Virus record (IMG/VR): IMGVR_UViG_2711768034_000008
Source: a virus
Taxonomy: Duplodnaviria > Heunggongvirae > Uroviricota > Caudoviricetes
Strand: one strand, 5' to 3'
DNA: 2,083 bases
The position numbers were made by a program, and so were the translations under genes. Positions within the stretch are counted from its first letter, which is position 1; each line of letters begins with the position of its first letter. The notes under the pieces are model-generated. The model did no database searches. It was not told the DNA's origin and saw only the letters and a list, made by a program, of their open reading frames with translations. This document shows positions 69 to 1,825 of the stretch, one piece after another.

Positions 69-100
69 ACGCCAGAATAATTGCTGGCGTTTTTCTTTTT
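69..100 (+). terminator. Candidate rho-independent terminator (tR'-like) upstream of the lysis genes
   Basis: Seen in sequence: 7-bp stem ACGCCAG (69-75) / CTGGCGT (84-90) with an 8-nt loop, followed directly by TTTTCTTTTT (91-100). Position about 90 nt upstream of the holin start fits the late-operon terminator that Q antitermination reads through in lambdoid phages (inference). Stem is short and not very GC-rich, so strength is uncertain. Confidence 0.4.
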
Positions 101-190: not shown

Positions 191-406
191 ATGAAATCCA
201 TGGATAAGTTAACAACGGGCATCGCCTACAGCACCTCTGCAGGCAGTGCTGGCTACTGGTTTTTACAGTTGCTCGATAAAGTCACGCCCTCACAGTGGGC
301 GGCAATAGGTGTATTGGGTAGTCTGGTATTTGGCATGCTGACGTATCTGACAAACCTTTATTTCAAGATTAAAGAAGACAGGCGTAAGGTTGCGAGAAGA
401 GAGTAA
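191..406 (+). CDS. essQ: Phage class II holin (pinholin), S21 / EssD / EssQ family, 71 aa, with dual-start antiholin/holin motif
   Basis: Translation [71 protein letters not shown]. Same length and architecture as phage 21 S21 and the E. coli prophage holins EssD/EssQ, recalled from memory: weakly hydrophobic Gly/Ala/Ser-rich TMD1, hydrophobic TMD2, basic C-terminal tail. Strong SD GGAGGT at 179-184, 6 nt before ATG 191; second in-frame ATG at 200. Stop TAA 404-406. The symbol essQ is a family-level guess based on pairing with an RrrQ-like endolysin; essD-like is also possible. Confidence 0.9.
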
Positions 407-410
407 TCCA

Positions 411-962
411 ATGACTCAAGACTATGAACTGGTTGTGAAAGGAGTTCGCAATTTTGAGAATAAAGTGGCGGTAACTGTAGCCTTACGGGACAAAAAACAC
501 TTTGACGGTGAAATTTTTGACCTGGACATCTCGCTGGACCGTGTTGAAGGTGCCGCGCTGGAGTTTTATGAGGCAGCAGCCAGAAGGAGCATCAGACAGG
601 TCTTCCTGGATGTTGCTGCCGGGTTATGTGAAGGGGATGAGCAGTCGCCGGAAAAGCGCCCCATAATTTTAGAGGCGCAGAATGTGTGGATAACCTACAA
701 AGGAAAGCTACCGGGAAGAATTACTGGTTCTCTGAAGACGCCACCGACGGCATTGCGGTCAGAAAAAGATGATATTGAATCGCCCATTGAAAAACTGGAG
801 GGCAGCGTCGCTGATCTGAATAAAAAATTGTCGGTGCTGATTCCTTCTGAAGATGAAAAAAAACGCCGCGATGAGCAGTTTGCGGCGTTTTACGATTATT
901 GCATTGAAGTTACTCGCAGGAATTTTGTGAAGATTTTTGAGGAGGGTAAATCTCTTCAGTAA
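411..962 (+). CDS. Hypothetical protein, 183 aa, hydrophilic and acidic, no predicted TM segment; translationally coupled to the holin
   Basis: Long open frame (MTQDYELVVKGVRNFENKVAVTVALRDKKHFDGEIFDLDISLDRVEG...FVKIFEEGKSLQ). ATG 411 lies 4 nt after the holin stop, preceded by an AGAGAG-like weak SD (398-404). Codon usage is broadly E. coli-like. I do not recognise the family. The track's TTG at 390 is a less likely start. Stop TAA 960-962. Confidence 0.6.
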   Translation: MTQDYELVVKGVRNFENKVAVTVALRDKKHFDGEIFDLDISLDRVEGAALEFYEAAARRSIRQVFLDVAAGLCEGDEQSPEKRPIILEAQNVWITYKGKLPGRITGSLKTPPTALRSEKDDIESPIEKLEGSVADLNKKLSVLIPSEDEKKRRDEQFAAFYDYCIEVTRRNFVKIFEEGKSLQ

Positions 963-1170
963 GCTTATTGGCGGACGCTGCAATTAATTCAGGAAGGTCC
1001 GCAAGGTCATCTGTCAGTGGATATGATGAAAAATCGGCGGCAGTTCTGTTAAGAAGCGCTTTAACTAATTCCTTTTCCTTCTCCGGCAACAAGTTGATTA
1101 GAGCTACGACTGCTTGCCTGAGTGCGATTAAATCAGCAAAAGTTTGTTTAGGTAGATTTGTGTAATCCAT
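910..1170 (-). CDS. Hypothetical small protein, 86 aa, acidic and predicted helical, encoded opposite to the lysis operon
   Basis: Minus-strand ORF MDYTNLPKQTFADLIALRQAVVALINLLPEKEKELVKALLNRTAADFSSYPLTDDLADLPELIAASANKLTEEIYPPQKSSQNSCE. ATG at 1168-1170 (plus-strand CAT) preceded by GAGG with a 5-nt spacer (minus-strand AGAGGCGACT-ATG). The region is visibly more AT-rich (roughly 37% GC in a 60-nt sample versus about 53% in the endolysin) and uses rarer codons (CTA, AGG, TTA), as horizontally acquired genes often do. The last 17 codons overlap the 3' end of the 411-962 gene. Family not recognised. Confidence 0.5.
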   Translation of the reverse strand: MDYTNLPKQTFADLIALRQAVVALINLLPEKEKELVKALLNRTAADFSSYPLTDDLADLPELIAASANKLTEEIYPPQKSSQNSCE

Positions 1171-1283: not shown

Positions 1284-1820
1284 ATGAACGTAAAAATCAG
1301 ATACAGCCTGTCGGCCGCTGTTCTGGCACTGATTGCCGCCAGTGCTCCTGCCCCTGACATTCTCGATCAGTTTCTGGATGAAAAAGAGGGGAATCACACC
1401 ACTGCATACCGCGATGGCTCCGGCATATGGACCATCTGTCGGGGAGCAACGATGGTGGACGGTAAACCTGTTATTCCGGGAATGAAACTGTCGAAGGAAA
1501 AATGCGCCCAGGTTAACGCCATTGAGCGGGATAAGGCGCTGGCATGGGTGGAGCGCAATATAAAAGTTCCACTGACCGAGCCACAGAAAGCCGGTATCGC
1601 GTCATTCTGTCCCTATAACATTGGCCCTGGTAAGTGTTTTCCGTCGACGTTTTATAAGCGGCTTAATGCCGGTGATCGTAAAGGCGCATGCGAGGCGATT
1701 CGCTGGTGGATAAAGGACGGTGGACGTGATTGCCGCATTCGTTCAAATAATTGTTACGGTCAGGTTATTCGGCGTGACCAGGAGAGTGATCCTACCCACG
1801 TAATATGGACACAGGCCTAA
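1284..1820 (+). CDS. rrrQ: SAR endolysin (phage lysozyme, GH24 T4-lysozyme-like, R21 / RrrD / RrrQ class); 3' end fused to IS3 terminal sequence
   Basis: Translation [54 protein letters not shown]... N-terminus has basic residues followed by an Ala/Ser-rich weakly hydrophobic stretch (signal-anchor-release type). Catalytic triad Glu35 / Asp44 / Thr50 sits at the same positions as in phage 21 R21 (LEG...YKD...WTVC versus EKEG...YRD...WTIC here). The ORF is open to TAA 1818-1820, but from 1787 onward the codons are IS3 terminal-repeat sequence, so the last 10 residues ([10 protein letters not shown]) are not native. Symbol rrrQ is a family-level assignment from memory, not a database hit. No obvious SD upstream of ATG 1284. 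Confidence 0.88.
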
Positions 1821-1825
1821 GCGAG
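1787..1825 (-). repeat. IS3 terminal inverted repeat (orfB-proximal end)
   Basis: Sequence TGATCCTACCCACGTAATATGGACACAGGCCTAAG... starting at 1787 matches my recollection of the IS3 terminus (TGATC... ends). The transposase stop codon (plus-strand CTA at 1817-1819) lies inside it, as in IS3. Exact IR length (about 39 bp) is from memory. Confidence 0.6.

Follow-up and report, generated by a model that had tools for sequence, protein, structure and literature searches.

The window, the whole stretch of 2083 bp that was analysed, corresponds to bases 8718–10800 of locus L004 and was taken from contig CXWS01000005.1 of the E. coli draft assembly GCA_001268745.1. It carries the Qin-type lysis genes essQ, a ydfR-family gene and rrrQ, and the reading frame of the last of these runs into one end of an insertion sequence, IS3. 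The contig stops two bases past the window, 299 bp into the element. Upstream of the lysis module the locus, which is flanked by rspB in the order rspB-int-...-Q, has genes for an integrase and an exonuclease, ydfU and Q, along with three accessory genes that encode a lipocalin, a YbgA-family protein and an AraC-type regulator, and nothing else. Neither a repressor gene nor replication genes were found on this upstream part of the contig, and in relatives of the type found in E. coli HS the terminase and tail genes downstream are truncated. The locus belongs to a cryptic lambdoid prophage of the Qin type, which was defective even before IS3 came. From essQ through the ydfR-family gene to rrrQ, the part that the contig covers, gene order and the rspB-side neighbourhood are the same as those of rrrQ (ydfQ) in the Qin prophage of K-12, where it stands with essQ, ydfR, rzpQ and rzoQ. 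Two differences from K-12 Qin are the 183-aa form of the ydfR product with an 86-aa antisense ORF after it, an arrangement shared with phages PhiR63_1 and 2H10, and the replacement of the last nine residues of RrrQ.

The first gene of the module (191–406, plus strand) encodes an intact 71-aa holin of the essQ type, predicted to be a class II (P21 S-like) holin from its match to PF04971 (E = 3e-34), and is annotated as essQ in identical loci. The next gene (411–962, plus strand) is the long, 183-aa form of the DUF1327/YdfR family, with PF07041 matched by residues 1–112 and phrog_2091 matched over 183/183 residues. The antisense ORF of 86 aa (910–1170, minus strand) overlaps the 3′ end of this gene by 53 bp; it is without a Pfam match and corresponds to phrog_2572 (86/86 residues, E = 4e-53) and to the hypothetical protein WP_001557934.1. 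Both are present in phages PhiR63_1 and 2H10 at 97–98% identity, and the same 552-bp YdfR-family gene is annotated as full-length in the complete phage PhiR63_1. On these sequence comparisons, the long ydfR form and the antisense ORF are a normal phage module. RefSeq labels the ydfR-family gene of identical loci as "incomplete, missing C-terminus" and covers only its first 336 bp. The idea of a fusion or pseudogene hinted at by this label was rejected on the end-to-end phrog_2091 match and the occurrence of the gene in complete phages. Neither the 183-aa product nor the antisense ORF has a known function. A terminator-like hairpin is located at 69–99 (plus strand), upstream of essQ and past the AraC-type regulator gene, the end of which lies just outside the window. 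With its 7-bp stem, five GC pairs and T-run, it could be a terminator of the accessory-gene transcript or a Q-dependent late terminator. An Rfam scan of the window returned no RNA family.

The right-hand 297 bp of IS3 occupy positions 1787–2083 on the minus strand. Base for base (297/297), this segment agrees with the insF-proximal end of the K-12 MG1655 element that carries the annotation "insertion sequence:IS3C", and it agrees equally (297/297) with the IS3 of strain H2. In a three-way alignment of the window with these two copies, T1787 is exactly where identity begins, and the sequences to the left of it are unrelated in all three. The reference copies of IS3 are 1258 bp long, have imperfect terminal inverted repeats of 39 nt and are annotated with a programmed frameshift. 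Since the reference arms measure 39 nt, the repeat in the window, which starts with TGATCC at the expected 5′-TG, spans 1787–1825. It belongs to the right (IRR, insF-proximal) end, and only this one end of the element is present. The earlier note had placed the start of the terminal repeat at 1787, in frame with the endolysin, and had read the flanking 3 bp as GAG at 1784–1786; both readings are borne out by the alignment and the sequence. If the insertion is a simple one, GAG is the predicted target-site duplication. The TG at 1787–1788 also occurs in native rrrQ, 2 bp being common by chance to the native sequence and the IS end; apparent native homology thus reaches 2 bp into the element, the start of which is still 1787.

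The minus-strand ORF at 1817–2083 encodes the C-terminal 88 codons of insF/orfB, a DDE transposase. It matches the integrase-core (rve) domain of orfB (rve_2, E = 1e-21; rve_3, E = 2e-10), with the catalytic core itself falling beyond the end of the window. The transposase genes are on the minus strand and read toward rrrQ, in the antisense direction. The insF stop codon (1817–1819, minus strand) overlaps the TAA stop of the interrupted rrrQ frame (1818–1820, plus strand), and the two convergent frames share their last bases.

Uninterrupted versions of the locus are common among E. coli genomes. Over positions 1–1788 the window matches, at 100% identity, the uninterrupted loci of E. coli HS and of numerous other complete genomes. 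At least 80% of the window is covered in 91 records, and the identical essQ-ydfR-like-rrrQ module (bases 1–1786) is kept uninterrupted in HS and approximately 88 other complete genomes. The interrupted allele is rare. Its product, WP_053274312.1, was found on a single contig among approximately 15 billion proteins. A search for the junction in 5426 complete E. coli genomes gave no match, and the left junction was also absent from metagenome contigs and species-representative genomes.

The chimeric rrrQ gene (1284–1820, plus strand) encodes a lysozyme of 178 aa, with PF00959 identified over residues 33–167. Codons 1–168 are native, and the IS3 terminal repeat supplies codons 169–178 and the stop. 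Native RrrQ of HS and K-12 is 177 aa long and ends in ...RRDQES-ALTCWGIEQ; the chimera has exchanged nine native residues (ALTCWGIEQ) for ten encoded by the IS, as the earlier note had described. Residues 1–168 are identical to HS RrrQ (168/168) up to the junction, the Pfam envelope is fully kept, and the protein is 90% identical to K-12 RrrQ. E35, D44 and T50 are unchanged. These residues align to Glu35/Asp44/Thr50 of the P21 and DLP12 endolysins, following the published triad numbering for this type (PMC8228626), and are invariant in 43 sequences. Residues 9–24 at the N-terminus are rich in Ala and Ser (9/16), the same as in the native protein, and a PF04971 holin gene lies upstream. The catalytic triad and the N-terminal domain are untouched, in agreement with the intact triad and SAR domain of the earlier note, and the lysozyme is predicted to be a SAR-type endolysin. 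R21 of phage P21 and RrrD of DLP12 (PDB 3HDE, 3HDF and 4ZPU) have the GH24 Phage_lysozyme fold in common with the RrrQ of the window, and share with it the Glu35/Asp44/Thr50 positions, an N-terminal segment rich in Ala, Ser and Leu and a P21-type holin encoded upstream. RrrQ-type lysozymes are only 37% identical to R21/RrrD and differ from them by an added Cys-rich loop at residues 150–158.

The replaced tail is strongly conserved. Across 42 native homologues, which extend down to 76% identity, L170, C172 and W173 never vary, and conservation reaches at least 90% at A169, G174 and D176. The C-x-W-G motif is present in native RrrQ and in R21/RrrD, being retained even in K-12 RrrD at 37% identity, and is missing from the copy in the window, which lacks the A-L-x-C-W-G tail and is predicted to lack the complete C-terminal helix. 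AlphaFold models a terminal helix at residues 161–171 of a native-like homologue with a pLDDT of about 74–77, whereas residues 158–178 of the chimera have a pLDDT below 50 and the helix is gone; AlphaFold confidence is no measure of stability, the underlying alignments had little depth (at least 76% identity), and the models serve as a hint. The terminal helix carries the invariant residues R163 and R164. In solved T4L-like endolysins, a conserved Arg of the helix bundle forms a salt bridge with the catalytic Glu (PMC8228626), and R163/R164 may be the counterparts of this residue. The lost tail is thus unlikely to be a dispensable appendage.

It had been proposed that the enzyme may still work. 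The intact triad agrees with that proposal, which was nevertheless too strongly stated, given the strong conservation of the replaced tail and its predicted helical fold. Whether the chimera retains activity is uncertain because the conserved tail is lost and the predicted helix is missing from its model, and lowered stability or activity is the likelier outcome: the last helix would be broken four to five residues past the invariant Arg163/Arg164 and Cys172 is lost, probably reducing one or the other. Eight cysteines are invariant in RrrQ-type lysozymes (C52, C74, C109, C118, C136, C150, C157 and C172), far more than RrrD and R21 possess, and the loss of C172 leaves an odd number of cysteines in a periplasmic enzyme.

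The interpretation that best accounts for the locus as a whole, and the one that is probably correct, is an IS3 insertion into rrrQ as part of the neutral decay of a defective Qin-type prophage. The 1258-bp element would have transposed into codon 168/169 of rrrQ; its insF-proximal end abuts the gene, and the rrrQ frame reads ten codons into the IS terminal repeat before reaching a stop. By analogy with neighbouring copies of the element, the event was likely a simple insertion of the IS3 type with a 3-bp GAG duplication and with rzpQ and rzoQ intact 1.26 kb further on. In that case, the insE-proximal end of IS3 (...GGGTAAGATCA; ...CACTATTGCTGGGTAAGATCA) would be followed by GAGTGCATTAACCTGCTGGGGG (GAGTGCATTAACCTGCTGGGGGATAGAACAGTGAATCAG). 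The predicted right junction, GGGTAAGATCA-GAG-TGCATTAACC, was absent from the metagenome contigs and species-representative genomes searched.

The preference for a simple insertion is founded on 13 other IS3 copies, all of 1258 bp, located between essQ and ynfN in complete genomes and including the insertion in strain KKo009, because a simple insertion with a clean duplication is the norm among them. Clean duplications flank 11 of the 13 copies. Ten of these are 3 bp long (AAT, CAT, AAT, AAC, TGT, GAA, CTT, TAA, TGC and TTC) and one is 4 bp long (CTGG); a further copy has the imperfect flanks ttt/tat, and the remaining one, in strain A10, lies in rzpQ with no duplication and with a deletion of 1.43 kb from rzpQ to ynfN. 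The nearest analogue of the insertion in the window is rrrQ::IS3 of KKo009 (L006:3058–3582), which has the same orientation, lies 5 bp downstream of the window site and gives a protein tail of ...ESALILPT. Its duplication is CAT, and rzpQ is intact directly beyond the IS3. It is an independent event, differing from the window in having another rrrQ allele (approximately 94% DNA identity) and the short form of ydfR.

The strongest competitor to a simple insertion is that the junction is one boundary of a deletion associated with IS3, or the product of two IS3 copies recombining, and that rzpQ/rzoQ and possibly the whole interval from cspI to ynfN were thereby removed. The A10 copy displays this pattern, with IS3 joining rzpQ to ynfN and no duplication. 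Strain H2 has an IS3 in ynfN that is a possible recombination partner, and for E. coli there is documentation of deletions mediated by IS elements as well as of local hopping (PMC5009759). The same study, however, recorded zero recombination events for IS3 itself, and 11 of the 13 regional copies are simple insertions with clean duplications, which makes a deletion improbable here. The A10 copy is located at L002:7860–9117, and a second region of that locus, at approximately 11240–13850, is a cluster of IS3 fragments. A further IS3 in A10 is nested within an IS3, with flanks that match the insF sequence and the duplication GAA. In strain STEC383 (L005:5253–6510), the IS3 lies inside essQ and is the copy with the 4-bp duplication CTGG in place of the usual 3 bp; the rzpQ gene of that locus is interrupted by a different element of the IS3 family, which lies in the opposite orientation.

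In K-12 Qin, HS and PhiR63_1, the native order is essQ, the ydfR-family gene, rrrQ, rzpQ (with rzoQ embedded), cspI and, further on, ynfN. The GTG start codon of rzpQ overlaps the rrrQ stop codon in native loci. In the window, which ends inside IS3, the spanin genes are not at this native position, as had been claimed for this DNA. IS3 entered 27 bp before the rzpQ start, on the upstream side of its GGGGGA ribosome-binding site as well. After a simple insertion, rzpQ and rzoQ would remain intact with their own ribosome-binding site 1.26 kb further on, and translational coupling would be lost. No terminator-like hairpin was detected on either strand of IS3, a result that lends no support to transcriptional uncoupling of the downstream genes. 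Outward transcription from the IS, which the earlier note had raised as a possible influence on neighbouring genes, found no backing: the four promoter-like sites in the window are at the level expected by chance (3.0), and none faces outward from the IS end. The IS genes are transcribed toward rrrQ, so any read-through from them would be antisense to rrrQ.

A second alternative invokes selection. Under prophage domestication, as the insertion had been described in the earlier note, IS3 hits that cripple or uncouple the endolysin and spanin genes would be favoured by preventing accidental lysis from a cryptic prophage. In keeping with this, the 5426 complete genomes contain at least 13 independent IS3 sites in the interval from essQ to ynfN, and many of these are within rzpQ. 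The allele in the window is nevertheless confined to one contig, approximately 88 genomes retain the identical module intact, several of the recurrent insertions fall in the spacer that follows rzpQ, where no gene is interrupted, and neutrality already predicts the build-up of IS elements in non-essential prophage DNA. Selected silencing is accordingly very improbable. With the locus already defective, the allele in 0/5426 complete genomes and no sign of selection, the label of domestication finds no support. The rarity of the allele and its defective context point instead to selectively neutral decay, and the insertion appears to be recent and private to a single E. coli lineage.

The least credible alternative, a contig end misjoined to an IS3 fragment during assembly, would fit a short-read draft that stops inside a multi-copy repeat, but it is scarcely tenable given that a contig ending one read length into an IS is the normal signature of a true insertion and that, on sequence, a join precisely at the first base of the IS3 terminal repeat between partners sharing only 2 bp is unlike chance or mis-assembly.

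The insertion of IS3 into rrrQ is one of several in this region. Across approximately 3 kb of the Qin-type lysis region, the independent IS3 sites in complete E. coli genomes are found in essQ, the end of rrrQ, rzpQ, the spacer between rzpQ and cspI, and ynfN; they were counted from loci L001, L002, L005–L009 and L012–L017, over a native-locus span equivalent to window positions of about 250 to about 3300. Two symmetric 800-bp searches identified, within approximately 900 bp downstream of rrrQ, ten genomes with IS3 in the orientation of the window and two with the opposite orientation. In those ten genomes, the transposase is antisense to the lysis genes. Transposition of IS3 is rare in mutation-accumulation lines, and nearby sites are preferred by IS elements as a class (PMC5009759). 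The stretch that takes in the end of rrrQ, rzpQ and the region upstream of cspI might be a genuine IS3 hot spot with an orientation preference, though this is doubtful. Such a hot spot would arise either from target choice by IS3, through local DNA structure, the direction of replication or transcription, or local hopping, or from selection against functional endolysin and spanin genes. The alternative is the mere tolerance of insertions in dispensable DNA. If the hot spot is real, the window represents one more hit in it, and if the enrichment holds against a genome-wide baseline, the 3-kb region could serve for studies of how IS3 chooses its targets.

Every component of the locus is already known: the IS3 of E. 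coli, the Qin lysis genes, the SAR endolysins of the P21/DLP12 type and the build-up of IS elements in cryptic prophages. The IS3 of K-12 (IS3 family, IS3 group; insE/insF) has the same TGATCC terminus, 39-nt inverted repeat and insF C-terminus as the window, with 100% identity over its 297 bases, although the window element is known here from its insF-proximal 297 bp alone. K-12 IS3C lies in renD of the cryptic prophage DLP12; the IS3 of the window is likewise in a gene of a cryptic lambdoid prophage, at another site. The window presents ordinary prophage decay and not a new system, and carries little weight beyond annotation. It is also a clean example of cryptic-prophage lysis genes eroded by an IS. 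NCBI files WP_053274312.1 as a plain "lysozyme" despite its IS-derived tail, and such products merit a flag as disrupted. The chimeric product of KKo009 is likewise filed by RefSeq as an intact "lysozyme" (WP_063090933.1).
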